Shown here piece by piece: positions 6,971 to 62,491 of a stretch of DNA of 64,000 nt. This DNA comes from a bacterium (GTDB lineage Bacteria > Patescibacteriota > Microgenomatia > UBA8517), in assembly GCA_030583725.1 (NCBI GenBank), contig CP129472.1, forward strand, positions 64,286-128,285. The letters run 5' to 3'. How positions within the stretch are numbered: position 1 is the first letter of the stretch; every line of letters starts with the position of its first letter. Below the pieces are notes generated by a model. That model saw only the letters and a program-made list of their open reading frames with translations. It ran no database searches and was not told the origin of the DNA. The translations under genes and the position numbers were made by a program.

Positions 6971-7050
6971 TCTGTCTCCACTATCTAACCGTTTTTCGGT
7001 GTTTAGTGCGCCAGCCTCAAGGGCTTCAGATAACTCCAAATAGAATAATA

Positions 7051-11584: not shown

Positions 11585-12170
11585 GTGCCTGTTTATAATT
11601 TAGCGCGAACCTATTTTACAACAAATTTCTAATTTGTGCTGAGCAACAAGGGAGGGGTTAAAGGGGAAGGAATTGTTGCGAAGCTCGGGTTTCCTCGCTC
11701 AGCCACTTCGTGGCTTCGCTAACACAACCTGCAAAGCTCGAAGCTTTGCGCTCACCCCACTTTGTGGGGTTCGCTAACCCAATTTAAAGGAAAAGGGGAT
11801 TATTTATAGTTCCACTTCGTGGAACGGTACTGTTACGGTATCCGTAAGGTACTTAATCAATACCGTTGACTAGTCGTATTTTCGACCCTTTTGCCGTTTA
11901 ACGGTCCGTACGGTCGGTTAACGGCCACCGTTGGGGTAAGGCTGAACACAAAAACTAACCCATTTCAGTCGCAATTTGCCCTAAAGGGCAACTTACCCAA
12001 GTGCTAAAAGACAAAAACTGGTGCTTATGCACAGCACTTGGTTAGGAAGCTACAAGCACACACACATTGCTCCTGAAATATTCCCTTTACGGGGAATCCT
12101 GCCCAACACAAAGACACTCCAAAGCTACAGGGGTGTTGGCTTCCGCCATGTGCAGGGCAGGAAGAACAAA
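11585..12170 (-). ncRNA. Structured RNA-like element, copy A: a ~380-nt hairpin-rich module (about 12170->11809) contiguous with a 200-nt inverted-repeat arm (11784->11585). Unclassified large ncRNA candidate.
   Basis: Three diverged copies in the window share an ordered set of hairpins with compensatory changes: a closing helix CUCCUG/CAGGAG; CCUGCCC/GGGCAGG; H1 UGGC-GGAA-GCCA (A) vs AUGGC-GUAA-GCCAU (B) vs UUGGCC-AAA-GGCCAA (C); H2 AUUCCC-loop-GGGAAU; a CCAAGUGCU...AGCACUUGG helix enclosing GUGC-AUAA/GUAA-GCAC; H4 UUGCCC-UUUA-GGGCAA vs UUGCC-UGUUAAG-G(U/C)AA. G-U wobbles are only valid on this strand. Confidence 0.5.
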
Positions 12171-17384: not shown

Positions 17385-17584
17385 AATTGGGTTAGCGAAC
17401 CCCACAAAGTGGGGTGAGCGCAAAGCTTCGAGCTTTGCAGGTTGTGTTAGCGAAGCCACGAAGTGGCTGAGCGAGGAAACCCGAGCTTCGCAACAATTCC
17501 TTCCCCTTTAACCCCTCCCTTGTTGCTCAGCACAAATTAGAAATTTGTTGTAAAATAGGTTCGCGCTAAATTATAAACAGGCAC
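17385..17584. repeat. 200-bp inverted-repeat arm A' (exact reverse complement of 11585..11784)
   Basis: Read by eye as an exact 200/200 reverse-complement match to the arm adjacent to ncRNA copy A. Internal hairpins GCAACAA..UUGUUGC, GCCAC-UUCG-UGGC, GCAAAGCU-CGA-AGCUUUGC, CCCCAC-UUU-GUGGGG. Confidence 0.85.
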
Positions 17585-17647
17585 CCAACCCCGACCTGTC
17601 GGGGTCGAGCGAAGCGAAGACCACGACATTTGCCCATCCCCTCGGAC
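17582..17647. repeat. ~65-bp inverted repeat IR65a (left arm, upstream of recombinase 1); partner at 19179..19244
   Basis: 'cacccaaccccgacctgtcggggtcgagcgaagcgaagaccacgacatttgcccatcccctcggac' is the reverse complement of 19179..19244; contains the palindrome CCCCGACCTGTCGGGG. Confidence 0.8.
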
Positions 17648-17693
17648 GAAAACAACACAAGACAAAACAAAAAAGTTGATATTATTTGATGCC

Positions 17694-17723
17694 TTGATAT
17701 GGATTATTTACGGGCGTATAAAT
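17694..17723 (+). promoter_or_regulatory. Sigma70-like promoter for recombinase 1: TTGATA - 17 nt - TATAAAT, start codon ~7 nt downstream (leaderless)
   Basis: TTGATA at 17694-17699, 17-nt spacer, TATAAAT at 17717-17723. The same 30-nt sequence 'ttgata(c/t)ggattatttacgggcgtataaat' is conserved upstream of all three recombinase genes. Confidence 0.65.
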
Positions 17724-17729
17724 GATATT

Positions 17730-31345: not shown

Positions 31346-31354
31346 GCTACTATC

Positions 31355-31384
31355 ATTTATACGCCCGTAAATAATCCGTATCAA
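31355..31384 (-). promoter_or_regulatory. Conserved sigma70-like leaderless promoter of recombinase 2
   Basis: Reverse complement reads ttgata-cggattatttacgggcg-tataaat; ATG 10 nt downstream. Confidence 0.65.
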
Positions 31385-31434
31385 GATATCAAATAATATC
31401 AACTTGTTGTTATGCTTTTTGTGTGGAGTTTTCA

Positions 31435-31503
31435 GTCCGAGGGGATGGGCTAAACGCTTGGTCGGCACTTCGTGCCGACCCGCCAAGTCGCAAAATGGTG
31501 CAT
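31435..31503. repeat. IR65b' (upstream of the recombinase 2 promoter)
   Basis: Reverse complement of 29830..29896. Confidence 0.8.
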
Positions 31504-38896: not shown

Positions 38897-39480
38897 CTCC
38901 TTTCTCCTGCCCATGCACATGGCGTAAGCCATCACCCCTGTAAGCTTTGGCGTGTTTTGTGTTGGGCAGAATTCCCGACAGGGAATATTTCAGGAGCAAT
39001 GCCTGTTGTGCCCGTAGCTTCCTAACCAAGTGCTGTGCGTAAGCACCTGTTCTGTTTTCAGCACTTGGATAGTTGCCTGTTAAGGTAAATTGCGACTGAA
39101 ATGTCATATTTTGTCCCAACGGCTAGCCGTTAACCGTCCAGCGGACGGTAACATGGACAAAAGGCCGTATTTACGGCCAGTTAACGGAGTCGATTGATCT
39201 TCTTACGGTATACCGTTAACTACCGTCAGGAGCCGTTAGGCCTCCTGACTATAAATAACCCCTTTTCCTTAAAGTGGGTAAGCGGAAGGCCGAAACGAGC
39301 GAAGCGAGTGGAGGCCTGGAGCGCAAACATGATATGGGTTTGCGAGCCGCGAAGCGGCGAGCAAGGAAACACGCTCCGCAACAATTCCTTCCCCTTTAAC
39401 CCCTCCCTTGTTGCTCCGCTACAGAATTAAAAATGTGTGGTAAAATAGGTTCTGACTAAACTATAGATATGCACCTTGAC
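38897..39480 (+). ncRNA. Structured RNA-like element, copy B (hairpin-rich module 38897..~39273 + inverted-repeat arm 39274..39480)
   Basis: Same hairpin order as copy A with compensatory changes: AUGGC-GUAA-GCCAU; AUUCCC-GACA-GGGAAU; GUGC-GUAA-GCAC; UUGCC-UGUUAAG-GUAA (G-U wobble, valid only on the + strand); ACGG-UAUA-CCGU; GUCAGGAG-loop-CUCCUGAC; then the conserved junction 'uauaaauaaccccuuuuccuuaaag'. Confidence 0.5.
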
Positions 39481-39870: not shown

Positions 39871-41496
39871 CAAATTGTAAATGCGGGTATGTGAAATTAA
39901 AATTTCATCACCCGCTCGAAGCTCGCGGGTATAGCATAGTGGTAATGCGCCTCGTTGCCAACGAGGATAGAGGAGTCCGATTCTCCTTACCCGCTCCCAC
40001 CCCCGACCTGTCGGGTCGGCACGAAGTGCGGACCAGACATTTATCCCCTGTCCTCGGACAATTCTGTTTTTTAGAAAGAGGTCCGAGCCGAAGATTTTAG
40101 CGGCGAGAACCTTTTTAAGTTGCAAGTCCGCAGACTTGGCAACTTGTGTAGCTGTTCTTGCTTCATTTATCCAACTCCTCATGGGTCCGAGCCAACTGTC
40201 ATTGGTTTGTTGGAAGTTAAAGATTTGCTCCTCCAATTTCTTCTTTTGGGAGAGAAGTTCTGACTTTTTAGAAAGATAACTTTCTTTGTCAACTTCTTGG
40301 TCAAGGTAACTATCCAAAAGAATTGTCAATTTGGAGGAAATCTTTCTAACTTCCTCTTGTTTTTCAAAAACAAACCTATGACCAGATTGGGCAAGATTGA
40401 TTTTTTCTTTGTCTAATTTCTTTAACATTTTACTTGCCCAATCGTTTCGCAAAGAATACTTTTTGATGAGTGTGGAGAGTTGAAAGTCTAAATTTTCCTC
40501 TCTAATAAATGGTTGGCGACAGTTATGGAATTTAGACTTTCTAGTACATCTATAGTATTTGAAAATATCTACTTTACCGTTTTTATAATATTTATTTTTA
40601 ATTTCTCCTGTAATTGCCATTCCACACTCTCCACACTTTAGAAGTCCTAAAAATGGTTTAGTAATTCTTGCCTTGGTCCACTGTTTACTTCTACCATTTA
40701 GGACTTCTTGTACTTCATCAAAAAGTTTCTTTGTGATTATTGGCGTATGGACCCCTTCGTGGATCTCTCCTAAATACCGAAAATGGCCGTAGTAGAATGG
40801 GTTTTTTAAAACAAGATTCATCTTGTCTATCCGAGCGCATCTAGCTTTAGGTAAATTTACGCCATTTTCTGACAAAAAGTCAGCAATTTGGTAAAGCCTA
40901 TACTTACCTGTTGCAAACATTTCAAAGGCTTTAACAATAAGTGGTGAAATCTTTTTATTAACTTTGATTGACTTATCCCTAGAATCATTAATGTAACCTA
41001 GTGGTGCAACACCTGGCATTTCACCACGTCTGACTTTTTGGCGTAGTCCTCTTTTGGTATTTTCAGAGAGAGCATCCACGAAGTACTTGCTTTGGCCAAA
41101 GGCCATTGCAAGCATGAATTTTCCTTGTGGAGTTGGTTCAAACCAAAATTGAGGACATTTTAAATACTTTAACTTTCCTATATCAATCAAGTAAATAATT
41201 TTTCCACCATCCATGGAGTTTCTAGCAAGTCTATCAGGATGCCAACAAATTATGCCAGAAGCACGGTCTTTTTCTATTGCTTCCATCATTTTATTAAATA
41301 TTGGTCTTCCTTGAATTTTGGCAGACTGCTTTTCAACAAATTCTTCAACAACAAACAAATTCTCACGTTTTGCAAAGTCTCTTAACTCAGCAAGTTGTGC
41401 TTCGATCGAAAGAATTTGTTTGTCTTCTACATCTGTAGACTTGCGTGCATACAAGAAAAATTTTTGAAGGCTAGGATTATTTACAATATTGCTCAT
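39817..41496 (-). CDS. Large serine recombinase 3
   Basis: 'FFLYARKSTDVEDKQILSIEAQ', 'WHPDRLARN', zinc ribbon 'LKCGECGMAITG...YRCTRKSKFHNC'; start MSNIVNNP at 41496. The C-terminus 'WSALRADPTGRGW' is encoded in IR65c; the frame continues antisense through tRNA-Gly/Phe without a stop until 39817. Confidence 0.85.
   Translation of the reverse strand: MSNIVNNPSLQKFFLYARKSTDVEDKQILSIEAQLAELRDFAKRENLFVVEEFVEKQSAKIQGRPIFNKMMEAIEKDRASGIICWHPDRLARNSMDGGKIIYLIDIGKLKYLKCPQFWFEPTPQGKFMLAMAFGQSKYFVDALSENTKRGLRQKVRRGEMPGVAPLGYINDSRDKSIKVNKKISPLIVKAFEMFATGKYRLYQIADFLSENGVNLPKARCARIDKMNLVLKNPFYYGHFRYLGEIHEGVHTPIITKKLFDEVQEVLNGRSKQWTKARITKPFLGLLKCGECGMAITGEIKNKYYKNGKVDIFKYYRCTRKSKFHNCRQPFIREENLDFQLSTLIKKYSLRNDWASKMLKKLDKEKINLAQSGHRFVFEKQEEVRKISSKLTILLDSYLDQEVDKESYLSKKSELLSQKKKLEEQIFNFQQTNDSWLGPMRSWINEARTATQVAKSADLQLKKVLAAKIFGSDLFLKNRIVRGQGINVWSALRADPTGRGWERVRRIGLLYPRWQRGALPLCYTRELRAGDEILISHTRIYNLCRELESNQHFIFFRDAP
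39925..39995 (+). tRNA. tRNA-Gly (anticodon GCC)
   Basis: GCGGGUA acceptor, anticodon arm CCUCG-UUGCCAA-CGAGG, T-arm AGGAG-UCCGAUU-CUCCU. The 3' end is contiguous with IR65c. Confidence 0.85.
39993..40059. repeat. IR65c (abuts the tRNA-Gly 3' end); partner 41580..41646
   Basis: 'gctcccacccccgacctgtcgggtcggcacgaagtgcggaccagacatttatcccctgtcctcggac' is the reverse complement of the partner. Confidence 0.8.
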
Positions 41497-41504
41497 GCAA
41501 TATT

Positions 41505-41534
41505 ATTTATACGCCCGTAAATAATCCGTATCAA
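41505..41534 (-). promoter_or_regulatory. Conserved sigma70-like leaderless promoter of recombinase 3
   Basis: Reverse complement ttgata-cggattatttacgggcg-tataaat, ATG 9 nt downstream. Confidence 0.65.
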
Positions 41535-41579
41535 TAGATCTTTTTATATCAATTTTGGTTTGAGGTTGTGTTCTGTTTT

Positions 41580-41646
41580 GTCCGAGGACAGGGGATAAAT
41601 GTCTGGTCCGCACTTCGTGCCGACCCGACAGGTCGGGGGTGGGAGC
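41580..41646. repeat. IR65c' (upstream of the recombinase 3 promoter)
   Basis: Reverse complement of 39993..40059. Confidence 0.8.
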
Positions 41647-41866
41647 GACTTTTCCAAACCGCTCTGACTTGGTTTCGCCAACATGTATAGTTTAACATCT
41701 TTGTTTGCATTCTCCAAGAAGAGGGGTTAAAGGGGAAATGAATTGGAGAATGCTCGTGTTGCTCGCTCAGCTCCGCTTCGCGGAGCTTCGCTAACCCAAT
41801 CGTGTGTGCGCTCCAGGCCTCCACTCGCTTCGCTCGTTTCGGCCTTCCGCTTACCCACTGTGTTTT
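41646..41866. repeat. ~220-bp inverted-repeat arm C (far end). Partner 57166..57386; followed by an inner segment 41867..41970 homologous to 31699..31790.
   Basis: Reverse complement of the arm 3' of ncRNA copy C. Hairpin CUCCAA...UUGGAG replaces GCAACAA...UUGUUGC of arms A/B around the conserved loop 'gaggggttaaaggggaa'. Confidence 0.85.
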
Positions 41867-41967: not shown

Positions 41968-42486
41968 CTAACTGTTCTTCCAGATTCCTAGTTTTTTGCT
42001 CTTTGCTTGTTCCTGTGCTTCTAAAAGTTGAACTTGATAAATAAATGGCTTCCTTTTTTGATATATAACTAATTCAGCCATACCTTTTCGGACAAGTTCA
42101 ATGGAGATGTTCTTTTCATCAATGATTGGGTATGCAAGAATTCTTCCAAATTTGTCAGAAGTATAGTTATCATATTCAAGTTTTATTTCTTTACCTTCAA
42201 CAAGTTCTTTGTTTAATTTAGAAGCTTCTTCTGCAAAGTCTTCACTCTCTTCTGGAGCTGTTATGCCAACATATCTAAGTACAGTACCGTTAAATAACTC
42301 TACAGTGTCTCCATCTATCACTCTTTTAACAACTGCAGTTTTGGGGAGTTTTGTAACATCATGATTTTCTATAGCTTCTCTAGAATCTAAAACTTTTCTT
42401 ACATCATCTTCATATTCTGTACCTTTGGATAGTTCTTTTAAGTTTTTAAGAAGTTCTACTGGGACTAAAACAAATTTGTTATTCAT
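41968..42486 (-). CDS. Staphylococcal-nuclease (SNase/thermonuclease)-like protein
   Basis: 'VKRVIDGDTVEL...LRYVGITAPE...GRILAYP' matches the SNase active-site region. Confidence 0.65.
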   Translation of the reverse strand: MNNKFVLVPVELLKNLKELSKGTEYEDDVRKVLDSREAIENHDVTKLPKTAVVKRVIDGDTVELFNGTVLRYVGITAPEESEDFAEEASKLNKELVEGKEIKLEYDNYTSDKFGRILAYPIIDEKNISIELVRKGMAELVIYQKRKPFIYQVQLLEAQEQAKSKKLGIWKNS

Positions 42487-43721: not shown

Positions 43722-46700
43722 TTATTTATCAATATATTTTTCAGTAATTTTACATTTTGGATAAAATTTACAACCCCACAAATATCCACCGAATCTACTT
43801 TTTCTTTTAATCATTGGCTGTGGTTCGTGATTTGGGTTAGGACAAATCGGTTCACCTGCAGGCGTATATTTTTTAACCATCTTTCTTAAACTAGTAAGTT
43901 TTTCTTTCTGCTCCTTGGTCTCTATATCTGTTTTTGGTATGACTCCCGGTTTATGCATACGCAATAAACAATATGTCCAATAACTACCGAAGCGACTTTT
44001 GTCTGTCCAATAATATGCTCCAGTTTCTTTGCAAAATTCGCACAATCTTAGATTATTTGTGCCTATTTTTCCAATATTCTTATCTAATTTCAAGAATTTA
44101 AACATTTGATTACATGTGGATTCACCCTCAAACCTTCTCATTACTTCATGGCTATCCTTTTGAGATAATATATTTAAGCTTCCTTCCCACAGTATATTTC
44201 TATCTATTATTGCTAATTTTCTATGAATAAAACCAACAAAAGGTAAGACCACAACTCCCAATTTGCTAAGCTCTTTGATACCGGATTCTGCTTGTTGTTT
44301 CATAAGTGAACTGTGTTCCTTCGTCATTCTTGTTAGTAAAAATATATTTACACCTTTACTTATAAGATGCCTAAAAATTGGCAAGAAAAAATTAACTCGA
44401 TTCATAGTTATATATGGACTATCGATTACAACTTCATTCTTTGCTTTAAGCAGATCGTTAACAAAAACATTATAAAAATCAGTTTCGTCAAACAACTTTG
44501 ATTGAGAATCGCCCTTTTCTAGTTCTTTTGTCTGAACTATTTTGGAAAGCCACTTTTCGGTCTTATCTGTAACAACATATTTTGGCAAAATTTCTTTTGC
44601 ATTAACGAATGGATAATTATTTAAACGCGAATATTCTACAAACATTCTTAACTTTGACGACAAACTATGTTTCACTAATAAACTTTTTGAATCTACTATT
44701 ACAATACATTTTTCTTGGGTTCGCGAAAAAGCGACATTTATAAGCTTTTCGTCATCACCACCATCCTGACTATCGTCTGTAAGTTTCGTTTGATTAGCTG
44801 TCGTTACATCAAAAATAATTATTTGCTTTTCTCCACCTTGAAACTTGTGTACAGTATCTACCACAACTTTATCATCTGTATTTTCGTCTTTCAGAATTTT
44901 TTGAATTAAATTTACCTGAGCTCTAAATGGTGAAATTATTCCGATGGTTTTGTAACCGCTCTTGATTGCTTGCTTTGCTATATCTACTGCCAATAATGCG
45001 TTATAAAGATTGTAATATGACCCAGAATCAGTTTTTACAGCAATTGTTCCCACTTCGCTCGTGTCAAAAACACCAATATGAAAATCGGGTAATGGTGGCT
45101 TTGACAGTAACACACTACCTTTATCAGAAGTCGCTTTAATGTCAGATATTAATTCATAGTCTTTACCGATTTTTGAATAGACAAGATGGTTAACTAAATT
45201 TGAGATGTCTGGGTGCATTCTGTATTGCCTTCTAAGTTGCTGTAAGCAGTTAACCAATGTTTTATTTCTAAGATTGTCTTCAACTCCCGATGCCTTAAAA
45301 ACATCTCGTTTTAGCCATTTATCCACGAGGTCTTGCTCTGCCTGCTTTTGTTCATCAGATAGATTCCTGTTATCGAGAACTTTATGTTTTGCAATTGGCG
45401 GAAGTTGAAGAAAATCACCAACAATAACTGTTTTAGTTTTTGATAAACCACAAGCGTGCCACACGGCAGGTAATGGAGCCATTGAAGCCTCATCAATAAT
45501 AACGCAGTCGTATTCACGACTCAATATTTCACTTGAACTATAACTTTTTGTTAACGTCGTCGCAATTATTTTTGCATTTTTGACTACCAACGAAATGAGG
45601 TTGTTCAACTGATTTTCTAATTCACTTTTTTGTGAATCTAAATCTTTTATTATCTTTCTATTGGCAAGGACTTTGGCTTCATTTTCTTCTCTAGAGTTAT
45701 CCCTTAAATCATTTCTAAGCTTTTCTGCCTCCTCCGTAAATATTCGCAACCTACCTTCAATTGTTTCAATTTGATAAATAGTTGCTTCATTTTTCTGTTT
45801 TAGATTTTCAATATTTTCAAGTAACTTTGTTTTTTCAGAGATTAATTGGGATAGATTTGTTCCAGAAAAGAACCTCATAATACTGTTTGAATTTTGATAA
45901 TTTGCGATTCTTTGGTTAATATCAGCTAATTTATGTTTATGTCCCGTCACTAATTCTTTTGAAGATATTAATTTGTTTTTGTTAGAGACTAACTCTCTAC
46001 TTATTTTTTCTATATCCTTATCACAATTATCAAGATTATCAAATAATTCAACAATTTTTTCTGAGTATTCACATTCTTTATTGATTTTATCAATTTTGGC
46101 GTTAAGATCTCCAATCTCTTTTCTGATCGGACTACCCTTAATTTCTAGTGCCTTACCGGGATCAACGTAATCAATTGATTTTAAATCCTTTTCTGTTTCG
46201 TAGAGCTTACTATCAGCATTTACCTTCCCAATACGTATGATGTTTCCAGATTCAAGATCACTTAACTGCTTCGTTTGCAACAGATACTGAACTGTTTTGT
46301 TCAAAGCCTCATCAGTTGCCTTATTTGTATGTGACAAAAGCAAAGTACTGTAGTTTAGAGACAACATGCCTTCGAGCATTTTAGCAATTAAATGTGTTTT
46401 GCCAGTTCCTGGAGGTCCCCAGATATAGGAAACTTCACTTCCCATTACGAGTCTTAATGCCCTCTCTTGAAATTCGTTCAAGGATTCCCCAACTGAGGGG
46501 ATAATATAGTCATTATCAATCATTGACTTTGAAGTATCAGGATTAAACGTTTTATTGGCTAAATCTGTTATTTTGATTTCACCATTTTTAATTTTTTGGA
46601 GTTTGTTATACAAAAGCTGCAACAAATAATAACTTGATATTATCATCATTGCTTCAGAAATTGTTGACCCAATATTTTTCTCTAATTGGACCTCAATTAT

Positions 46701-46946
46701 ATTTTCATTTATGCCAATAACTTTACCAGATACAGACTCATTTTTGATACGAATTTCAATTTCAGAATCAGAGTCAATATCTTGTAAAAAATCCATAACA
46801 AATTCGTAGATATGTAACTCTCCTACGACAGATGTTAACTGGCCGTTTGTTAGTCGAATACTGGAGCCACCTTCTTTTTGAAGATATTTAATATTAGCAT
46901 CAAGGGCTAACATCATCTCATCTATAATGTTTTGATTATCAGTCAT
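43722..46946 (-). CDS. Upf1/Dna2-like SF1 helicase fused to a PLD-family nuclease domain and a C-terminal topoisomerase-type C4 zinc finger (1074 aa)
   Basis: Walker A 'GPPGTGKTH'; motif II 'VIIDEASM'; 'VGDFLQLPP'; 'SPFRAQ'; 'VHKFQGGEKQIIIFD'; PLD HKD motif 'HRKLAIIDRNILWEGSLNILS'; zinc ribbon 'CPNPNHEPQPMIKRKSRFGGYLWGCKFYPKC'. Long coiled-coil insert between the helicase halves. Confidence 0.75.
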   Translation of the reverse strand: MTDNQNIIDEMMLALDANIKYLQKEGGSSIRLTNGQLTSVVGELHIYEFVMDFLQDIDSDSEIEIRIKNESVSGKVIGINENIIEVQLEKNIGSTISEAMMIISSYYLLQLLYNKLQKIKNGEIKITDLANKTFNPDTSKSMIDNDYIIPSVGESLNEFQERALRLVMGSEVSYIWGPPGTGKTHLIAKMLEGMLSLNYSTLLLSHTNKATDEALNKTVQYLLQTKQLSDLESGNIIRIGKVNADSKLYETEKDLKSIDYVDPGKALEIKGSPIRKEIGDLNAKIDKINKECEYSEKIVELFDNLDNCDKDIEKISRELVSNKNKLISSKELVTGHKHKLADINQRIANYQNSNSIMRFFSGTNLSQLISEKTKLLENIENLKQKNEATIYQIETIEGRLRIFTEEAEKLRNDLRDNSREENEAKVLANRKIIKDLDSQKSELENQLNNLISLVVKNAKIIATTLTKSYSSSEILSREYDCVIIDEASMAPLPAVWHACGLSKTKTVIVGDFLQLPPIAKHKVLDNRNLSDEQKQAEQDLVDKWLKRDVFKASGVEDNLRNKTLVNCLQQLRRQYRMHPDISNLVNHLVYSKIGKDYELISDIKATSDKGSVLLSKPPLPDFHIGVFDTSEVGTIAVKTDSGSYYNLYNALLAVDIAKQAIKSGYKTIGIISPFRAQVNLIQKILKDENTDDKVVVDTVHKFQGGEKQIIIFDVTTANQTKLTDDSQDGGDDEKLINVAFSRTQEKCIVIVDSKSLLVKHSLSSKLRMFVEYSRLNNYPFVNAKEILPKYVVTDKTEKWLSKIVQTKELEKGDSQSKLFDETDFYNVFVNDLLKAKNEVVIDSPYITMNRVNFFLPIFRHLISKGVNIFLLTRMTKEHSSLMKQQAESGIKELSKLGVVVLPFVGFIHRKLAIIDRNILWEGSLNILSQKDSHEVMRRFEGESTCNQMFKFLKLDKNIGKIGTNNLRLCEFCKETGAYYWTDKSRFGSYWTYCLLRMHKPGVIPKTDIETKEQKEKLTSLRKMVKKYTPAGEPICPNPNHEPQPMIKRKSRFGGYLWGCKFYPKCKITEKYIDK

Positions 46947-55853: not shown

Positions 55854-56696
55854 TCATTTATCAAACTTTTTAAATTCAGTTTCACGATCCTCAATTATTT
55901 CATTTACATTACCCCAATTATTTTGAGCTGGTGTTAATTTAAGCAAAACTAATAATCTTAATAAAATTGTTAATCCTAACATTAAGGTAAGCCACAAAAT
56001 AACAGTTGATACTAAAATTTTTACAATAGTAGCTAGGTATTTAAATATAAAGACTTTTTTAGTCAACTCTGGATTGTAAAGTGATATAAATATCAAAGTA
56101 ATTAAAATTACTAATGCTACAATTGAAATTATCAAGATATCCTTAATATTAGCAGATGAGACAACCCCAATTAATTCATAGGCAGATAAACATTCTGATT
56201 TTCCTTGCTTTGATATAACTTTTGATAAATCTCTTTTATTTACAGGACCAAACGATCTTGAATCATTTGAATTTAACCGATTGTCCCCTAGAACAAAATA
56301 TTCATCATTATCTAAAACTACTGATTGGTTATCATTTTCGTGTGCACTTATGTCTAAAAATCCATTTTCGCTAACTATTTTGTCATTAATATAAATTTTT
56401 GAATTAACTATCGTTACCTTTTCATTTGGTAGTCCAATTATTCTTTTAACAAAATCAGCGTTCTCAACACTTGAATCATATTTACTACCATCAAAAGTGA
56501 CAACATCGCAACGATTATAAGACACTAGTCTTCTAACTGAAGAGTAACTATCACGATTACTAAAGTAAGGATTCATTGAATTTCCCATAACATCACCATT
56601 ATCAAAGCCCGATATAAAATATAAACCTATCAATAGTACGATGCCTATCCCACCATGTTTAAGAATATCTAGAAAAATCTTTTCGATTTTCTTCAT
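55854..56696 (-). CDS. lepB: Signal peptidase I (S26) with an extended C-terminal membrane region
   Basis: 'GNSMNPYF' (catalytic Ser), 'GDNRLNSNDSRSFG' (box E). Confidence 0.7.
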   Translation of the reverse strand: MKKIEKIFLDILKHGGIGIVLLIGLYFISGFDNGDVMGNSMNPYFSNRDSYSSVRRLVSYNRCDVVTFDGSKYDSSVENADFVKRIIGLPNEKVTIVNSKIYINDKIVSENGFLDISAHENDNQSVVLDNDEYFVLGDNRLNSNDSRSFGPVNKRDLSKVISKQGKSECLSAYELIGVVSSANIKDILIISIVALVILITLIFISLYNPELTKKVFIFKYLATIVKILVSTVILWLTLMLGLTILLRLLVLLKLTPAQNNWGNVNEIIEDRETEFKKFDK

Positions 56697-56744
56697 AATT
56701 TCAGTTTACTCTTTTGGTTATAAGTTGTTAATCTCTTTTATTGT

Positions 56745-57386
56745 TCTCCTGCCCATGCACATTGGCCAAAGGCCAACCACCCCTGTAAGCTTTGGGGTGT
56801 TTTGTGTTGGGCAGGATTCCCGACAGGGAATATTTCAGGAGCAATGGTTTTGTTGTTTTTGTGTTCTAACCAAGTGCTGTGCCGAAGGCACTTTTGGAGT
56901 TGTTTTCTAGCACTTGGGTAGTTGCCTGTTAAGGCAAATTGCGACTGAAATGACACATTAGAAATCCTTTAAAAATAGGTCTTGTTTAGTTTTTGTGTTC
57001 ATATGTGAACTTGCGGTGACCGCATCCGCAACCGCAGTACCGCAACTCCGCAATATGCCCTATAATACGACACGATTGCGGATTTTATAAAGGTCTCTGC
57101 GGTATACCGCAAGGGCACCGTCAGACACTCGCAAGTGTCTGACTCTACAAATAACCCCTTTTCCTTAAAGTGGGTAAGCGGAAGGCCGAAACGAGCGAAG
57201 CGAGTGGAGGCCTGGAGCGCACACACGATTGGGTTAGCGAAGCTCCGCGAAGCGGAGCTGAGCGAGCAACACGAGCATTCTCCAATTCATTTCCCCTTTA
57301 ACCCCTCTTCTTGGAGAATGCAAACAAAGATGTTAAACTATACATGTTGGCGAAACCAAGTCAGAGCGGTTTGGAAAAGTCGCTCC
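56745..57386 (+). ncRNA. Structured RNA-like element, copy C (hairpin-rich module 56745..~57165 + inverted-repeat arm 57166..57386)
   Basis: Closing helices CUCCUG/CAGGAG and CCUGCCCA/UGGGCAGG (perfect 8 bp); UUGGCC-AAA-GGCCAA; AUUCCC-GACA-GGGAAU; CCAAGUGCU..AGCACUUGG enclosing GUGCC-GAA-GGCAC; UUGCC-UGUUAAG-GCAA; UGCGG-UAUA-CCGCA; GUCAGACAC-UCGCAA-GUGUCUGAC; then the junction 'cuacaaauaaccccuuuuccuuaaag'. Confidence 0.5.
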
Positions 57387-57517
57387 ATAGCGAAATGGTT
57401 TTGCGTTTTTCCCAATTTTCCTCAAGAAATCAGCATTTTCCCGAGTTCTAGCCACTATTTTTAACGGTTTATCTTTAGCCTGGAAAAAAGTTTACCGGTT
57501 ACCGGAGTCGGACCAAA

Positions 57518-58792
57518 TTATTTTTTCTTACTTACTTCTTTTATAACCCAATCACCGAAAACCAATGGTTTCCAGTCTTTTCCTATGGTTTCTCCAATGC
57601 TCTTGGTAAATGACCCACCTATATTTGCACCAGCCACAATTACTCCAGTCAATGGAGTAGGATCAATCGCAGCATAGAATGGTGGTCCATATTGTAATAA
57701 ATTTCCAAATAACTTGAGTGTAGAAGAAGTAAATTTTGTTATTCCAGAAGCTTTTGTTACTTCTTGGTGATACTCCACAATCTCATCTCTGTCCCTTTCC
57801 GATTCTTGCTGAAGCCATTTTCTAAACTTTGAACTATTACTTCTGACTTTCATTACTAAATCAATATCAATGATGCCTTGGTTAACTAACTCACGTATAT
57901 TTGGGTATTCGACTTTTTCCGTGAGCTTGCTAATCACTTTTTGAGGTTTATTTGTACTTTGATCTACTTCAAAAAGTTTATTACCAACGACAGTACTCAT
58001 AACATCACCCAAATACAAATCCCACCCATATTTCGATGATGTCCATATCAGATTATTGGAATGTGCCTCACCTATTGCAGGCATTTCTCCTCTGAAATAA
58101 CCGGGTAAACCTAACAACTCATCCAACTTTTTAAAGTCGTAATTATAATTAATCGTGAATTGATCACTTTCTGAATTTAGAATAGTCGAGTGAATTTCAG
58201 GTGGCTTTATTCCTGGTTGGAAGTTTTTGAAAATATGATCTACATAAGCTTGGGTGAGTAAATTTATTCTCTCAGTTTGTTTTAGAGCCAGTCTTGAGTT
58301 TTCAACTGGAGGGTCGTAACCTTCGGCCATTTCATTAATCAAATTTTCTTCAATAATTCTATATAGTTGTGCCCTTTTTCGTGAATTCATGAATTTTGCC
58401 AGATTGCTTCTATAAACTATCAATCTGATGAAGTCACTTTGATTGTTTTCTTGCGGAGTGTTAATGTTCCAAATCGAAAAAGTACCTTGATTATTTATTG
58501 CACTTGTCATGAAGTGGTAGTAAAAGGGACGGAGAGTTCTTTCCCTCAATAAGCTGAAAAATAAATCCAACTTTCCTTGTGAAGAAAACCACTCAAGTAA
58601 TTCTTCGAATTCTTCTACAGTATTGATGTTAAATAAAACTTGATCGTAATAAATTAGAGATTCTGCAAGAAGTCCAAGATCAACATGTTTTTTAGCTTTA
58701 GCCAGATAAGGAGAACTGAAAGGCCAAACTTCTAGCGGGACCAATACTGTAGTGTGTTTGTTAATAGAATCTGTCATGATTTTATCAAACAT
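57518..58792 (-). CDS. Hypothetical protein (424 aa), downstream partner in a two-gene operon
   Basis: Overlaps the upstream gene by 8 nt; no motif recognised. Confidence 0.5.
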   Translation of the reverse strand: MFDKIMTDSINKHTTVLVPLEVWPFSSPYLAKAKKHVDLGLLAESLIYYDQVLFNINTVEEFEELLEWFSSQGKLDLFFSLLRERTLRPFYYHFMTSAINNQGTFSIWNINTPQENNQSDFIRLIVYRSNLAKFMNSRKRAQLYRIIEENLINEMAEGYDPPVENSRLALKQTERINLLTQAYVDHIFKNFQPGIKPPEIHSTILNSESDQFTINYNYDFKKLDELLGLPGYFRGEMPAIGEAHSNNLIWTSSKYGWDLYLGDVMSTVVGNKLFEVDQSTNKPQKVISKLTEKVEYPNIRELVNQGIIDIDLVMKVRSNSSKFRKWLQQESERDRDEIVEYHQEVTKASGITKFTSSTLKLFGNLLQYGPPFYAAIDPTPLTGVIVAGANIGGSFTKSIGETIGKDWKPLVFGDWVIKEVSKKK

Positions 58793-59768
58793 TTTTTACT
58801 TCTTTGTTAACATTTGACATTGTTTTTAAAAATTTATCGAAAAGAGGTTTGAGCTCCTTTTCAGCCTTCCATCCATAATGATCACTTGCCGAAGCAAATA
58901 TACTACTAAAGAAATCAAAAGCCATAACAAGATCTTCTTCGACCCAATTATCAGAGATACCTGCAAAATTAGTGAAACCATTTTCAGTTTGTTTTACATA
59001 ATCATTCATCACTCGCGCATGGGAATGTGTATGTTGAGAGCTGAGACGGTACATTGTTTTATATTGGCCACTCCGATTAACCTCTTCTGCCATTTCTCCC
59101 AATGACTTGTCAGACCAGTTGTAGCCCTTGTATTTGTATTTATCTTGGACTTGTTTTGCCATTTTTTTAACTTCAGAAATAGAGACGTCTCCATTTTTTG
59201 GTTTTAAAGCACGTTGCTCGAGTTGAAGTAATAGTTCTGGTTTTTGTTCTGCATAATTAAACATTTTCTCTCTCAATATCCAATCAAAACCGTAATAACG
59301 GTATGCTCGTTCATCAGTAGGGTCTTTTAGGATATATAAAAGTGTAATTAAAAGTTCAAATATTGTTCTGTTCAAGATTGAGGCATCTTCGCCGTATCCT
59401 CCTTCGCAAAGAGCCATGATAGCTGAATGTGTTTTATAGGATTTTGCCAAAGTGAATGCAACAAGAGCATCTTTTGGTCCTATGTTTCGAATTTCCCTTT
59501 CGAGATAATCATCTACCAGTAACTTGAGTTGATGGTTAAAGCTAAAGAGATCTTTGTAGGAAGTGCTTATAACATTTTTTGTACGATAGTTAGACGCATC
59601 TTCTTCGCTAACGACCCACTCACGTCCCTTTTTTTCGGCCTTTAACTTTCCTTCACCTATTAATCTACGGATGTAAGAATCATCGTTATAGCCAAGTATC
59701 TTCGCAAGGTCTCGAGTGTTATAGTATCGCATATTAAAAATAATACACTCTTTGTATTTACTTGTCAA
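58785..59768 (-). CDS. Protein with an N-terminal excisionase/MerR-like HTH (HTH_17-type) and a large uncharacterised C-terminal domain
   Basis: 'YNTRDLAKILGYNDDSYIRRLIGEGKLKAEKKGREWVVSEED' resembles excisionase-family DNA-binding domains. Confidence 0.5.
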   Translation of the reverse strand: MTSKYKECIIFNMRYYNTRDLAKILGYNDDSYIRRLIGEGKLKAEKKGREWVVSEEDASNYRTKNVISTSYKDLFSFNHQLKLLVDDYLEREIRNIGPKDALVAFTLAKSYKTHSAIMALCEGGYGEDASILNRTIFELLITLLYILKDPTDERAYRYYGFDWILREKMFNYAEQKPELLLQLEQRALKPKNGDVSISEVKKMAKQVQDKYKYKGYNWSDKSLGEMAEEVNRSGQYKTMYRLSSQHTHSHARVMNDYVKQTENGFTNFAGISDNWVEEDLVMAFDFFSSIFASASDHYGWKAEKELKPLFDKFLKTMSNVNKEVKNV

Positions 59769-60053
59769 CGGTCACCGTGTACTAGATTGCGTGTACTGAA
59801 TAATATTTTGACGTCCTAGCATGTTTTTTGATCTCTGCGATCTTTACCGAATACCTCCATATATAGAAACGAATTGATTTCCTTCAAGTAGCCTTTGAAA
59901 ACTGTAAGTTGTAAAATTAACTCAGCCTGAGCTGTAATATAGTAGTGAAGACCGATTTTAATTTTGGAAATAAGAGATAAATCGGGATCGAGTAGATATT
60001 GTTTGATATACTCGTCCTGGCTAAACAGGTTCGAGCCAATTACGGTTACCAGC

Positions 60054-60443
60054 TCACAAATCCTTTTTAAACCAATCCCCTAGTGGTTTTTTACTGTTTG
60101 GATAGTAATTGTAGTTTATAAATATTTCAGAATTACTTTTTATATTTTTAATAGCTTTAATTATCAATTTCTTGTTTTTGTAATCATATAAATATCTTGC
60201 GTTTGGTGAATAGGAATGGTTATATAAACTTGCAGTTCCTAGAGCTATGACAAAGTGTTTATTTGTATATTCAAAGTAATAGTAATAAAGATTAGTTTTT
60301 TTGATATGTTTAAAATCTTTAATAGGTAATAAAATAAGTGGGGCAATTTCTATTATCTCACCTTTTTTAATGTTTTCTTTTGAGAATACACCACTACCAT
60401 TGATTGTTTCAGATTGTTTGATCGTTATTTTTTGCATCATCAA
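60054..60443 (-). CDS. Minimal SET-like domain protein (129 aa)
   Basis: 'GSGVFSKENIKKGEII', 'NHSYSPNA' (NHSCxPN variant), 'SEIFINYN'. Confidence 0.5.
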   Translation of the reverse strand: MMMQKITIKQSETINGSGVFSKENIKKGEIIEIAPLILLPIKDFKHIKKTNLYYYYFEYTNKHFVIALGTASLYNHSYSPNARYLYDYKNKKLIIKAIKNIKSNSEIFINYNYYPNSKKPLGDWFKKDL

Positions 60444-61422
60444 TTGTGTTAATAAATATCCTTTTTAATGTTTCGGTAAAGTCAACACCATACATATCAA
60501 GAATTATTGAATATGTTGCGTGGGTTTCTTTGGTCGGACCAAAAAAAGGGTTACAATTAGGGTCAATTACGTAAATTCTTCCCGATGCATCAATTCTTAA
60601 GTCTATTCTTGCATAGTCTGACATTTTTAAAATATCAAACGTTTTTCTAACATATTCTTTTAAATTGTCTTGTTCATATTTAATATACTCAATAGTTTTC
60701 CAATTTTTCCATTTTTTATTAAAAGTAACAACATCACCTTCTGTGTCGTTGTTCGTTTTTCTTTGTACACAGTAGACTTTTGTATTGGAACCGTCAAGAA
60801 CAGATGCAGTAACTTCAATTCCAGCTATAAACTCGTCAACTAAAATTGGTTGCCTAAATTTATCAATTAAATATTTTAGTTTGTTTCTTAATTGTTTCTC
60901 ATTCCTGCAAATACTATCCTCGTCAACACCAATACTACTATGTTCGTGATTTAATTTTGGAAACAAAGGGTATCTCAAATTGTGATCTATACTTTCTGTA
61001 TGAGAAGTAAAAAGTTGATGATTTGGTACTGGTACACCACCAGACTCAAGCAGTTTATACATTAAATATTTGTTTGTACCAATTGACCAACCAAGAGTGC
61101 CAGAACCAGTATACGGAATATTTAGAATCTCATATAGTCCAATAACTGAGGCCCCAAGTGTTGACTCTCCTCTTACACTATCTACTAAATTTAATATCAT
61201 CGATGGATTGTATTTTTTTAAGTTAGCAGCAATACTTTCATCGCAAGGGAGGCAGACAACATCAATCCCCATATTTAGGGCATATTTTGCAATATCATTA
61301 GCATAGATGTCTGCACCTTCTTCAGACACATATTCCTCTTCAGTTTTAAAATATTCTCTTTTTACATCAGAATACACAATTGCAACTTTTTTAGGTAATC
61401 TTATTTTTTCTTGATCAGTCAT
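60409..61422 (-). CDS. ATP-grasp enzyme, D-Ala-D-Ala ligase-like (paralog 2)
   Basis: 'KKVAIVYSDVKREY...', Ddl_N-like then an ATP-grasp fold; paralog of the upstream gene. Confidence 0.6.
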   Translation of the reverse strand: MTDQEKIRLPKKVAIVYSDVKREYFKTEEEYVSEEGADIYANDIAKYALNMGIDVVCLPCDESIAANLKKYNPSMILNLVDSVRGESTLGASVIGLYEILNIPYTGSGTLGWSIGTNKYLMYKLLESGGVPVPNHQLFTSHTESIDHNLRYPLFPKLNHEHSSIGVDEDSICRNEKQLRNKLKYLIDKFRQPILVDEFIAGIEVTASVLDGSNTKVYCVQRKTNNDTEGDVVTFNKKWKNWKTIEYIKYEQDNLKEYVRKTFDILKMSDYARIDLRIDASGRIYVIDPNCNPFFGPTKETHATYSIILDMYGVDFTETLKRIFINTIDDAKNNDQTI

Positions 61423-61423
61423 C

Positions 61424-62491
61424 TTAATATCCCCATTCCCTCATTGTATTTTGAAGCATTCTTTTAAGCAGTGTTTTAAACGGAACACCATAATCCTCTA
61501 AGGTTTTAGTCATTTCACATTCCCAACTTGGTGGACCAAAATGACAATTTGCATTGGCATCAATGAAATAGTATTTTCCCATTCTGTCCATTCTTACATC
61601 AAATTTGCCATAGTCTGACATTCTGGCAATTTTAAAGGCTTTTTTAACTAAAGCATCAAGTAAAGGATCATGATATTTTTCATACTTTAAATATTTTTTA
61701 TATTCTGAAGGTTCATACATCCAACAAAGATCATAGTCTAAAAATTCATGTCCTGTTTTGTTGTTTGGAAGTTTAATTTTTCTTTCTATTGAATATACTT
61801 TTTTGTTTACAGATTCAAAAGTAAAAATTGCAAATTCTCGTCCATCAATAAATTCTGAGACCAGTACGTCCTGTTCATAATACTTATTTAATAGATACTT
61901 TAATTGACGTCTTAAATCTTTTTCATTTTCTACAACAGATTTTCTAGTTATTTCTACATTACTGTGTTCTTCATTAAGTTTTAAAATCAAGGGAAACTTT
62001 AAAGACGGGTCTAGAGGTGTTTTGGCAGATGTCATTAATTGAAAAGGGGGTACTGGTATGCCATGTTGTGACAAAAGTGCATATATCAAATACTTGTTGC
62101 ACCCTAGAGAAAAACCTAGAATATCAGCACCAGTATATGGGATTTCAAGAAGTTCAAGTGTCGCAGGGATAGTTGCGCCCAGATAGTCATAACCTTTAAC
62201 TGTTGTAACCAAATTAATTGCCATATCTGGTTTTTCTTTTTGTAGGTTCTTGGCAATATCAGAGTCCCCTTTTATATAACAAACGTCAACACCAAGGGAC
62301 TTAAGAAATGGTCCAAAAGCGTAGGCTTCTTTGTCAGAACCATCTACTGTATAGAATTCTTCTACGGTGTAGTAATATTCTCTCTTTGCATCTGTGTATA
62401 TAATTGCAACTTTTTTGGGAAGCTTTCCACCATTCTGATTGTGTTTAGCAATTAGGCTTCTGGTGTTAGGAGAATTAACTATATCTTTCAT
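61424..62491 (-). CDS. ATP-grasp enzyme, D-Ala-D-Ala ligase-like (paralog 1)
   Basis: 'KKVAIIYTDAKREYYYT...' with the same domain order; about one-third identity to its neighbour by eye. Confidence 0.6.
   Translation of the reverse strand: MKDIVNSPNTRSLIAKHNQNGGKLPKKVAIIYTDAKREYYYTVEEFYTVDGSDKEAYAFGPFLKSLGVDVCYIKGDSDIAKNLQKEKPDMAINLVTTVKGYDYLGATIPATLELLEIPYTGADILGFSLGCNKYLIYALLSQHGIPVPPFQLMTSAKTPLDPSLKFPLILKLNEEHSNVEITRKSVVENEKDLRRQLKYLLNKYYEQDVLVSEFIDGREFAIFTFESVNKKVYSIERKIKLPNNKTGHEFLDYDLCWMYEPSEYKKYLKYEKYHDPLLDALVKKAFKIARMSDYGKFDVRMDRMGKYYFIDANANCHFGPPSWECEMTKTLEDYGVPFKTLLKRMLQNTMREWGY

Follow-up and report, generated by a model that had tools for sequence, protein, structure and literature searches.

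What do the two genes lying side by side on the minus strand next to element C encode, and is their helix-turn-helix (HTH) protein an effector, one half of an abortive-infection or toxin-antitoxin-like system, or the recombination directionality factor of an integrative element? These possibilities had been raised in a preliminary description of the window, by which we mean the whole 64,000-nt stretch of DNA analyzed here. We propose, at about even confidence, that the locus is a regulator-led slot for defence cassettes beside a tRNA-Gly integration site, and that the cargo it carries here is a candidate new defence effector.

Both open reading frames called previously (58785..59768 and 57518..58792, minus strand) are real and together form one transcription unit, whose main features are the following:

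58785..59732, minus strand: gene A, 315 aa, HTH_17 + DUF5677, a conserved gene that leads the cassette slot
57518..58792, minus strand: gene B, 424 aa, or 419 aa from ATG 58777; the cargo cassette, from a rare unannotated family of ~420 aa
59740..59768, minus strand: promoter TTGACA-17 nt-TATTAT, with the ATG 7 nt past the -10 box; transcript probably leaderless
59776..59796, minus strand: putative operator, two direct GTACACG repeats (59796-59790 and 59782-59776) that abut the -35 box

The TTG at 59768 that had been taken as the start codon of gene A was ruled out because it belongs to the -35 hexamer TTGACA of a near-consensus promoter, of which 59768 is the first base. The true start is the ATG at 59732, yielding a 315-aa product identical (100%) to the public protein P0076, and because this ATG follows the -10 box so closely a leaderless mRNA is implied. 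An overlap between the genes had been reported; it amounts to 8 nt if gene B starts at ATG 58792 and disappears with a start at ATG 58777, the second ATG, where gene callers place it in identical and near-identical copies (419 aa, 7 nt past the A stop). The two genes are tightly coupled whichever start holds, and a scan between them found no strong terminator-like site (two weak minus-strand matches with 5-bp stems, both inside coding sequences). It is the 3' end of the operon (B stop, 57518), and not its beginning as described, that lies 131 nt from the perfect inverted-repeat arm of element C (218 nt, 57169-57386). No Rfam family matched in 56600-60200, even at E ≤ 1, and a 230-nt repeat upstream of gene A folded no better than shuffled sequences (z -1.25).

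Gene A combines two recognizable parts:

59598..59726, minus strand: HTH_17, an excisionase/MerR/BldC-type winged helix (gene A residues 3-45)
58977..59468, minus strand: DUF5677 domain (PF18928), an all-helical bundle (gene A residues 89-252)
59007..59042, minus strand: the "His-rich patch" SSQHTHSHARVM (residues 231-242), which holds the invariant H236 and R240

Gene A does have an HTH of excisionase/MerR type. The HTH_17 profile (PF12728) matched the window copy marginally (26.7-26.9 bits, against a cut-off of 27) and was detected in 17 of 25 aligned A homologs (best E-value 1.4e-8), residues 1-55 gave BldC and Xis proteins as best structural matches (PDB 6amk, 4j2n), and the winged-helix fold was superimposable on solved HTH members. 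The HTH was also the sole part of gene A matched by PADLOC 2.0 (mad1, E-value 1.7e-5). The following ~260 aa, first reported as uncharacterised sequence, correspond to Pfam DUF5677 (E-value 6e-39), which scored 134 bits where the cut-off is 27.1 and was matched from position 2 to position 165 of its 166. Invariant residues of this domain include G112, G114, E115, R122, D137, Y228, H236 and R240, while D116 and N243, the latter right after the His-rich patch, are nearly invariant. A tblastn search of gene A against 72,556 plasmids and 50,697 phage genomes returned no match.

The promoter of gene A is sigma-70-like, agrees with the consensus at 11 of 12 positions and was the best site of the scanned region. 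Its -35/-10/ATG spacing is kept in homologous A loci, and the promoter/ATG layout is common to 22 related ones. The two GTACACG repeats are spaced 14 nt start to start, in a tandem pattern that occurs once in the 64-kb window (0.01 expected); 14 of the 22 loci have an exact same-orientation TACACG pair ≤70 nt upstream of the ATG, with none in their remaining 127 kb. The repeats lie directly upstream of the -35 box in a window-like group of A loci, and a second group carries the reverse-complement motif within the -35/-10 region. Direct repeats are also bound by Xis. BldC has been reported as a binder of such repeats (PMC5859096), and the tandem arrangement at the presumed site of gene A fits the head-to-tail binding mode of both. 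Repeats that abut the promoter and are kept in relatives thus point to autoregulation of gene A, and conserved operator repeats at a promoter mark A as a predicted regulator, which makes the earlier label of "HTH-fused effector" doubtful. We infer from this conservation that gene A's own promoter is most likely bound by its HTH at the tandem GTACACG repeats, and that A would thereby control a leaderless bicistronic transcript, the direction of that control being likewise conjectural. DUF5677 would then be the signal-sensing or catalytic part of A, linking a trigger to the expression or activity of the cargo.

The neighborhood analysis of homologs proposed in the preliminary description was informative. 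In Microgenomates (CPR) relatives the cassette after gene A differs each time, with genes of Septu, TIR, Mrr, DUF4238, DUF3800 and pPIWI-nuclease type downstream of close A homologs. Behind an A copy 95% identical in protein, PtuA (E-value 1.6e-164) and PtuB (E-value 1.1e-67) begin 5 nt later. Other loci carry a 188-aa protein with a TIR_2 protein, a 227-aa protein with Mrr_cat (6 loci), DUF3800 (PADLOC candidate PDC-M04A), DUF4238, pP_pnuc_1 (a pPIWI-associated nuclease) or a 158-aa membrane protein. A single DUF4238 gene gives protection against T7 (PMC9122126), and DUF3800 is the accessory protein of type VII retrons (PMC7736814). Many or most cargo proteins are without annotation, the unannotated families of the slot being gene B, the 227-aa Mrr partner and proteins of 188, 246 and 283 aa. 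A same-strand partner is found at -10 to +68 nt in 17 of 21 HTH-type A loci, and DNA homology between A loci breaks at the A stop codon and picks up again in a conserved tail. The interval between the A stop codon and this tail is exchangeable cargo: a known or predicted anti-phage module in related Microgenomates and, in this genome, gene B. Of the defence-type layout suggested earlier, the conflict or defence flavour is borne out by the A neighborhoods, but the pairing of A with B is not conserved as a two-component system.

The far side of the slot is delimited as follows:

57381..57517, minus strand: conserved 134-nt tail closing the cassette slot, starting with a hairpin and T-run and ending in CGCTCCA
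57381..57387, no strand: recombination junction, where homology to relatives ends and the 218-nt arm of element C starts

The tail opens with a hairpin and T-run (CCGGTAACCGG TAAACTTTTTT, 57505-57482) and terminates in CGCTCCA, a tRNA-Gly-like acceptor end. Its identity is 87% to locus L057 and 83% to L137, where it immediately follows cargo genes that differ from gene B or are the same, and in L057 it leads into a convergent tRNA-Gly(TCC). More generally, the tail of relatives ends at the 3' end of tRNA-Gly, sometimes with a large serine recombinase (LSR) in between. L139, a contig of another sample that is 100% identical to the window, diverges from it after 57383, so that L139, the window and L057 show alternative junctions. 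The minus-strand order in the window is A, B, tail, element C, LSR (41496-39817) and tRNA-Gly, which places the nearest same-strand LSR ~16 kb away, across element C.

Gene B, described as lacking any recognisable motif, is indeed unrecognisable: it matched nothing in Pfam, NCBIfam or PADLOC (no component of any PADLOC 2.0 system at E ≤ 1), and PHROGs and PDB sequences gave matches at noise level only (E ≥ 0.12). No solved structural relative of the family was found, and the fold of gene B is novel. A profile search with the family retrieved 771 cluster representatives at E ≤ 1e-3 among 1.84 billion (161 at E ≤ 1e-30). Copies are present in 39 of 185,579 species genomes, scattered patchily across many phyla, and ~10 of the 39 are split or truncated. 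Searching 72,556 plasmids and 50,697 phage genomes by tblastn with gene B and a typical homolog (P0014) gave no match. Integrases, transposases and toxin-antitoxin genes occur among the neighbors of B homologs, many others being housekeeping genes, and in a Pfam census of 139 flanking proteins nothing recurred apart from integrases, transposases and HTH_3, which were scattered. Two regions stand out in the protein:

57608..57736, minus strand: Gly/Ala-rich hydrophobic stretch of gene B (~residues 353-395; hydropathy and zipper counts)
57548..57574, minus strand: invariant C-terminal motif W-K-P-x-V-F-G-x-W of gene B (W407, P409, F412, G413, W415; alignment of the family)

Most B-family members carry a glycine zipper, and NCBI names P0014 a "glycine zipper family protein". 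Many of 46 aligned members have 10-14 overlapping small-xxx-small-xxx-small motifs and a 19-residue hydropathy of 1.5-2.0, which together with the hydrophobic C-terminal stretch recalls glycine-zipper membrane proteins. Homologs with a canonical zipper are encoded by culturable species such as Cellvibrio fibrivorans BE190 and Marinobacterium stanieri DSM 7027, in the latter as two separate ORFs. Unlike in those proteins, the zipper takes up just ~40 of 420 residues, next to a large N-terminal domain unrelated to anything known. In the window copy this zipper has degenerated, with a zipper count of 0 and a hydropathy of 1.06 at most, and pLDDT is low over residues 353-390. Because of its position in the slot, gene B is a candidate defence effector, most likely a stand-alone defence or abortive-infection protein that may act on the membrane via its C-terminal zipper region; as a candidate, it is probably a new anti-virus protein. 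Counting against this overall reading of slot and cargo are the many unannotated cargo genes, the ordinary metabolic genes found downstream of DUF5677 homologs that lack an HTH, the absence of gene B from the PADLOC models, plasmids and phage genomes searched, the housekeeping genes near many B homologs, the degenerate zipper of the window copy and the result for a DUF5677 gene tested alone that is given below.

Several other readings of the locus were weighed against that of a regulator-led slot. The invariant polar residues of DUF5677 would also fit an enzyme that is itself the effector, so that A could be an enzyme, for instance a HEPN-like nuclease, which the HTH anchors to DNA, with the downstream genes, B included, accessory or unrelated. 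The conserved set (E115, R122, D137, H236 and R240, with D116 and N243 nearly so), the presence of DUF5677 alone in many genomes and the in-frame fusion of gene A to a Mrr_cat-containing half in L060 agree with this. We nonetheless consider it unlikely, and the lack of a conserved Rx4-6H motif led us to reject a canonical HEPN RNase: the sole R-x6-H of gene A is R229...H236, homologs have S, Y or F in place of R229, and the invariant H236 and R240 are spaced H-x3-R. No HEPN Pfam family matched at E ≤ 1 across 25 A-family members, and the A-family profile had no match among PDB sequences at E ≤ 10. In Enterococcus faecalis, five of nine candidate ORFs reduced plaquing; a DUF5677 gene tested alone was not one of them, and no protection was reported for it (bioRxiv 10.1101/2025.10.07.681051). 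Rather improbable in our view is that A is the recombination directionality factor (excisionase) of neighboring LSR elements, with the repeats as architectural sites at an element end and B as a passenger. The Xis-like fold of its HTH would suit this role, as would the start of DNA homology to relatives precisely at the repeats (59797), the A-cargo-LSR-tRNA layout of L046 and L069 together with the similar minus-strand order of the window, the statistical enrichment of DUF5677 beside serine recombinases that mark defence loci (bioRxiv 10.1101/2025.10.07.681051) and the ability of winged-helix directionality factors to regulate transcription too (PMC11963761). However, of the 12 HTH-type A loci for which the sequence extends ≥2.5 kb downstream, just 2 have an LSR ≤5 kb downstream, so A does not consistently co-occur with a cognate recombinase and the directionality role raised in the preliminary description gains little from these loci. 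The repeats, moreover, stay in constant register with the -35/-10 boxes and lie inside the promoter in one group, as would suit control of transcription. DUF5677 proteins that lack an HTH are common, and an excisionase needs no conserved domain of 270 aa.

Tight coupling behind an autoregulated-looking promoter, retention of the same pair in several samples of the strain cluster and the frequent splitting or truncation of B-family genes, as expected of a costly gene, would all be in keeping with A and B as a classical toxin-antitoxin or two-component Abi pair, in which the HTH protein neutralises B by contact and represses the operon. We rejected this reading because the pair is not conserved, and judge it very unlikely. 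A + B was found solely in this strain cluster (L137-L140), gene B in 0 of 80 metagenome loci with an A homolog, and neither a DUF5677 gene nor any other conserved neighbor in 45 loci with a B homolog; an 83%-identical copy of gene B also has no DUF5677 gene upstream. Gene B is solitary elsewhere and kept alone in many phyla, and it is improbable that contact with a single domain could neutralise a dozen unrelated partners. There is similarly little chance that the locus has no conflict role at all, A being an ordinary local transcription factor, B a rare protein of cellular physiology (e.g. envelope-associated), and the two neighbors by accidental island insertion. The many housekeeping neighbors of B homologs, the absence of B from the phages, plasmids and PADLOC models searched and the lack of annotation of most cargo proteins go with such a view; against it stand the patchy spread and frequent decay of B across phyla, the slot it shares with Septu, TIR, Mrr and DUF4238 cassettes, and the linkage of the locus to tRNA genes and serine recombinases.

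As a regulator-led slot, the locus resembles several known systems. BrxR/CapW-type WYL transcription factors are found upstream of diverse defence systems (PMC9122601, PMC9122589, PMC9122588), and gene A is likewise a conserved, putatively DNA-binding gene with a second, probably ligand-sensing domain that leads many unrelated defence cassettes (Septu, TIR_2, Mrr_cat, DUF4238, DUF3800/PDC-M04A, pP_pnuc_1), with repeats at its own promoter that suggest autoregulation. Unlike BrxR/CapW, it lacks WYL, which was absent from its Pfam matches along with the wHTH + WYL architecture, its HTH is of the Xis/BldC/MerR type, its second domain is DUF5677, and the HTH-DUF5677 family, a predicted regulator, has so far been found in Microgenomates (CPR). 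BldC and Xis are stand-alone proteins of 50-70 residues, whereas the HTH of gene A is fused to a 270-residue DUF5677 helical domain and most of its loci are without a cognate recombinase. Gene A is a clear member of the DUF5677 family studied in Bacillota and also lies beside large-serine-recombinase elements, but that study concerns small Gin-like recombinases and describes neither the HTH fusion nor the operator nor a swappable slot behind the gene (bioRxiv 10.1101/2025.10.07.681051). Conserved flanks (gene A on one side, the 134-nt tail and tRNA on the other) around a sharply bounded variable interior with known defence genes, DUF4238 among them, are shared with the hotspots of P2 prophages and P4 satellites (PMC9122126); unlike these, the present slot is a chromosomal, tRNA-proximal, LSR-associated islet in CPR, one flank of which is a regulator gene. 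Septu occupies the same slot behind the 95%-identical gene A of a related genome, and gene B resembles neither of its proteins, PtuA and PtuB, and matches no PADLOC model.

Defence systems have been poorly surveyed in CPR bacteria, since CPR organisms are uncultured and the focus of most discovery pipelines is on Proteobacteria and Firmicutes. A conserved and readily recognised leader gene that has a fixed promoter/operator and a sharply bounded slot offers a practical "bait" for defence genes in CPR metagenomes, in parallel with the use of serine recombinases or BrxR elsewhere, and nominates gene B, the 227-aa Mrr partner and the 188-, 246- and 283-aa proteins as families to pursue. DUF5677 gains a first testable role, and GTACACG is a defined DNA motif for binding studies. 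More tentatively, and with the balance tilted against it, HTH-DUF5677 proteins could be an unrecognised class of CPR defence regulators or sensors that license interchangeable effectors at a tRNA-Gly/serine-recombinase slot, and gene B the founder of a family of anti-phage effectors, each encoded by a single gene, with a novel fold and a glycine zipper as killing module, which horizontal transfer has scattered over bacteria and archaea. Gene B is compact, widely scattered and without a structural relative, so that its mechanism would be new if it truly is an effector.

We compared the two adjacent minus-strand genes outside element C (the segment between a pair of perfect inverted-repeat arms), gene A (58785..59732, HTH_17 + DUF5677) and gene B behind it (57518..58792), with related loci on other contigs. 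Among the 21 distinct HTH-type loci having downstream sequence, 17 carry a same-strand gene beginning -10 to +68 nt after A, and these partner genes are mutually unrelated. The defence association proposed in the preliminary description was borne out by the neighbourhoods of A homologs, which precede Septu, TIR_2, Mrr_cat, DUF3800, DUF4238 and pP_pnuc_1 genes. Gene B is one among many interchangeable cargoes, and cargoes other than B, where nameable, are defence genes. A single DUF4238 gene shields E. coli from T7 (PMC9122126), and type VII retrons use DUF3800 as their accessory protein (PMC7736814).

Cargo behind gene A homologs, by locus
L136: Septu (PtuA, E 1.6e-164; PtuB, E 1.1e-67), preceded by an A copy that shares 95% identity with that of the window
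L056: 188-aa protein and 503-aa TIR_2 protein
Six loci: 227-aa protein and 154-aa Mrr_cat nuclease; L061 and L060 have fused forms
L046: DUF3800 protein matching the PADLOC candidate PDC-M04A
L065: DUF4238 protein
L077: predicted pPIWI-associated nuclease pP_pnuc_1
L057: 283-aa protein with an RDFRNFIH stretch at its C-terminal end
L049: 158-aa membrane protein and 296-aa protein

DNA homology between the window and five of these loci (L136, L056, L057, L049 and L060) starts at ~59797-59804, level with the putative operator of gene A or immediately upstream of it, and stops at or just before the gene A stop codon. It returns in a 134-nt tail (57514-57381), which shares 87% identity with the sequence that L057 has behind its unrelated cargo gene, and 83% with L137. 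By this loss and return of homology, the interval from the A stop codon to the tail is a sharply bounded, exchangeable slot.

Features flanking genes A and B
59796-59776, minus strand: two direct GTACACG repeats, 14 nt start to start, abutting the -35 box
From 59768, minus strand: promoter-like site (TTGACA, 17 nt, TATTAT), 11/12 matches, the best of the region
57505-57482, minus strand: hairpin and T-run, 3' of gene B

We confirmed both open reading frames of the preliminary description, 58785..59768 (327 aa when read from a TTG) and 57518..58792 (424 aa), but the TTG at 59768 is base 1 of the -35 hexamer TTGACA and gene A was instead started at the ATG at 59732, 7 nt past the -10 box. The same ATG begins P0076, a public 315-aa protein 100% identical to that of gene A (named “DUF5677 domain-containing protein”, on a MAG contig of 841,695 bp), as well as the A genes called on three more contigs whose DNA is 100% identical to the window (L138-L140); with this spacing and shared start, the gene A transcript is probably leaderless. 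The reported overlap of the two genes amounts to 8 nt if B starts at 58792 and gives way to a 7-nt gap if it starts at the second ATG (58777), the start picked by gene callers in all close copies. Scanning for a strong terminator-like site between A and B returned none; the sole entries were two weak 5-bp stem matches on the minus strand, both within coding sequences.

We then aligned the 130 nt upstream of A in 22 HTH-type homologs (protein identity 46-95%), all of which have the promoter/ATG layout in common. The window-like group follows the pattern (A)GTACACG-N7-(A)GTACACG-N6-TTGACA-N17-TAtTAT-N7-ATG, and a second group carries the reverse-complement motif within the promoter (TTGACGTGTAC-N8-ACGTGTATAAT). 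The tandem GTACACG pattern occurs once in the window versus 0.01 expected by chance; an exact same-orientation TACACG pair lies ≤70 nt from the ATG in 14/22 loci and nowhere in the remaining 127 kb of these 22 loci. The simplest reading of this conservation is that gene A would bind the GTACACG repeats and autoregulate the operon. Gene A is the constant part of the locus, a putative DNA-binding and apparently autoregulated leader gene.

Loci of the second group (L063-L075) share a further conserved element, ~40-110 nt ahead of the start codon of A (GGCTAAATGAGACAAATGAGACA..TATAAAAAGG..GTGTCTC), made of direct AATGAGACA repeats and an inverted copy. Between the gene A promoter and a SET-domain gene, the window has a 230-nt non-coding repeat (59827-60055), also found in L057 (two copies), L049, L136 (downstream of Septu) and L056, with no Rfam match and folding no better than shuffles. 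The region upstream of the operon (60054-62491) encodes, on the operon's strand, a SET-domain protein of 129 aa and a pair of D-Ala-D-Ala-ligase-like ATP-grasp paralogs; the two paralogs have an 88-nt direct repeat in common (70% identity, 61308-61395 and 62332-62419).

Using Pfam, we assigned residues 89-252 of gene A to DUF5677 (PF18928, E 6e-39) and residues 3-45 to HTH_17 (26.7-26.9 bits, marginally below the cut-off of 27), a domain found in 17/25 aligned homologs. Invariant residues of the homolog alignment include G112, G114, E115, R122, D137, Y228, H236 and R240, and D116 and N243 are nearly invariant. The His-rich patch noted earlier is present as the H236/R240 motif, in sequence that belongs to DUF5677 rather than being uncharacterised. 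We therefore filed gene A under DUF5677 and not under HEPN, whose Rx4-6H motif is not conserved in these homologs. Two further arrangements were also recorded: L060 (283-2283) has an A homolog joined in frame to an Mrr_cat-containing C-terminal half (666-aa ORF), which may be genuine or may stem from a frameshift artefact, and L057 (4006-4887) has a second HTH_17/MerR-type gene (293 aa) directly upstream of its A gene.

To the other side of the slot, the tail leads directly into a convergent tRNA-Gly(TCC) in L057 (junction region 6934-7007), tRNA-Gly lies behind the cargo in L049 and L060, and a large serine recombinase (LSR) gene separates cargo from tRNA in L046 (Gly) and L069 (Leu). The window tail terminates in CGCTCCA, a tRNA-Gly-like acceptor end, and joins at 57381-57387 the outer end of element C's perfect 218-nt arm (57169-57386, paired with 41642-41859). 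The minus-strand order is A, B, tail, arm, 15.3 kb, arm, LSR (41496-39817) and convergent tRNA-Gly(GCC) (39925-39997), which is the L046 layout with element C inserted between. Contig L139, which comes from a different sample, matches the window at 100% identity between 60081 and 57383 and diverges beyond, so the post-tail junction varies between populations; the differing junctions suggest an active recombination site at the tRNA-Gly acceptor end after the tail. The sequence after the tail is the element C arm in the window and L138, unrelated to the window in L139 (2690-2720), and different, possibly tRNA-like, in L137, where ARAGORN called no tRNA.

The window holds three LSR genes (Resolvase + Recombinase + Zn_ribbon_recom; 17582-19244, 29830-31501 and 39992-41647), each bracketed by 66-70-nt inverted repeats (100%, 98% and 100% complementary) beginning in tRNA 3' ends. 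Three perfect 203-218-nt inverted-repeat pairs (11582-11784/17385-17587, 31497-31699/39273-39475 and 41642-41859/57169-57386) delimit segments of 5.6, 7.6 and 15.3 kb, which look more like the product of inversion or rearrangement between att sites that LSRs use in different tRNA genes than like simple insertions. On both arms of element C the outer end reads GGAGCG, then ACTTTTCC, a tRNA-Gly-like acceptor sequence. A ~600-nt non-coding stretch at the right end of element C (56741-57307; GC 0.42 vs ~0.32 background) is a diverged copy (81-85%) of 38902-39405 and 11652-12169, the corresponding end stretches of the two other elements. The interior of element C, with a staphylococcal-nuclease homolog (41968-42486) and a fused 1074-aa AAA_11/AAA_12 helicase + PLD-like nuclease domain + Zn ribbon (43722-46946), is a defence-like architecture.

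Gene B had zero matches in Pfam, NCBIfam and PADLOC and noise-level matches only (E ≥ 0.12) in PHROGs and PDB sequences. It belongs to a well-conserved ~420-residue family with 75 clusters in a 90% collection; a full profile search among 1.84 billion cluster representatives retrieved 771 at E ≤ 1e-3, including 161 at E ≤ 1e-30. Copies occur in 39/185,579 species genomes, including Cellvibrio, Marinobacterium, Acidobacteriota, Chloroflexota, Planctomycetota and Gemmatimonadota, with a homolog also in a Methanoregulaceae archaeon; ~10 of the 39 are split or truncated, and no member of the family turned up in the plasmid and phage collections. Over its last 70 residues the protein is Gly/Ala-rich and hydrophobic; in many members this stretch forms a glycine zipper (10-14 overlapping small-xxx-small motifs), after which comes an invariant W-K-P-x-V-F-G-x-W. 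One member is listed at NCBI as “glycine zipper family protein”. No neighbour is conserved among the B homologs and none of the 45 loci compared has a DUF5677 gene nearby, nor does an 83%-identical copy have one upstream. Housekeeping genes flank many of the homologs, and here and there integrases, TniQ, IS110 and IS200 transposases, or HigB and ParE modules occur among them.

Since the nameable cargoes are defence genes and the slot lies at a tRNA/serine-recombinase integration site, the best-supported reading is a composite one, a regulator-led defence-cassette slot with B as candidate stand-alone effector, to which we give about an even chance. Among its parts, defence cargo in the slot is quite likely and a DNA-binding regulator role for A likely; a defence effector role for B is plausible at somewhat under even confidence, and action of B on the membrane via its zipper is speculative, weakened because the zipper is degenerate in the window copy.

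Xis proteins bind direct repeats, as A is predicted to. Direct repeats are reported to be bound likewise by BldC, as head-to-tail multimers (PMC5859096). The excisionase or recombination directionality factor role suggested in the preliminary description seems improbable. That A is itself the effector is unlikely, if slightly less so. A published survey found DUF5677 significantly enriched beside serine recombinases marking Bacillota defence loci, and a DUF5677 gene tested alone was outside the 5/9 ORFs reducing plaquing (bioRxiv 10.1101/2025.10.07.681051). A toxin-antitoxin pair would agree with A and B forming one operon in the window, as first described; the two are without conservation as a two-component system, the pair being confined to the window's strain cluster (L137, DNA identity 89%; L138-L140, 100%), and we regard this as very unlikely. 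The housekeeping genes around B homologs would suit the absence of any conflict role for A and B, which, beside the defence cargoes of other A loci, we hold to be just as improbable.

As a regulator-led slot, the locus recalls the WYL regulators BrxR/CapW, which likewise precede diverse defence systems (PMC9122601, PMC9122588) and to which A is functionally comparable, although A, lacking a WYL domain, falls outside that family. Neither the DUF5677 and HTH_17 families nor the kind of arrangement, a defence hotspot that has conserved flanks or regulators, is new; in the literature searched, we found no account of an HTH-DUF5677 leader with conserved operator and leaderless promoter, of a sharply bounded slot in genomes of CPR bacteria (the group including Microgenomates), or of the B family as slot cargo. 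The finding gives DUF5677 and the B family their first hypothesis open to testing, and is useful chiefly as a way into the defence genes of CPR bacteria.
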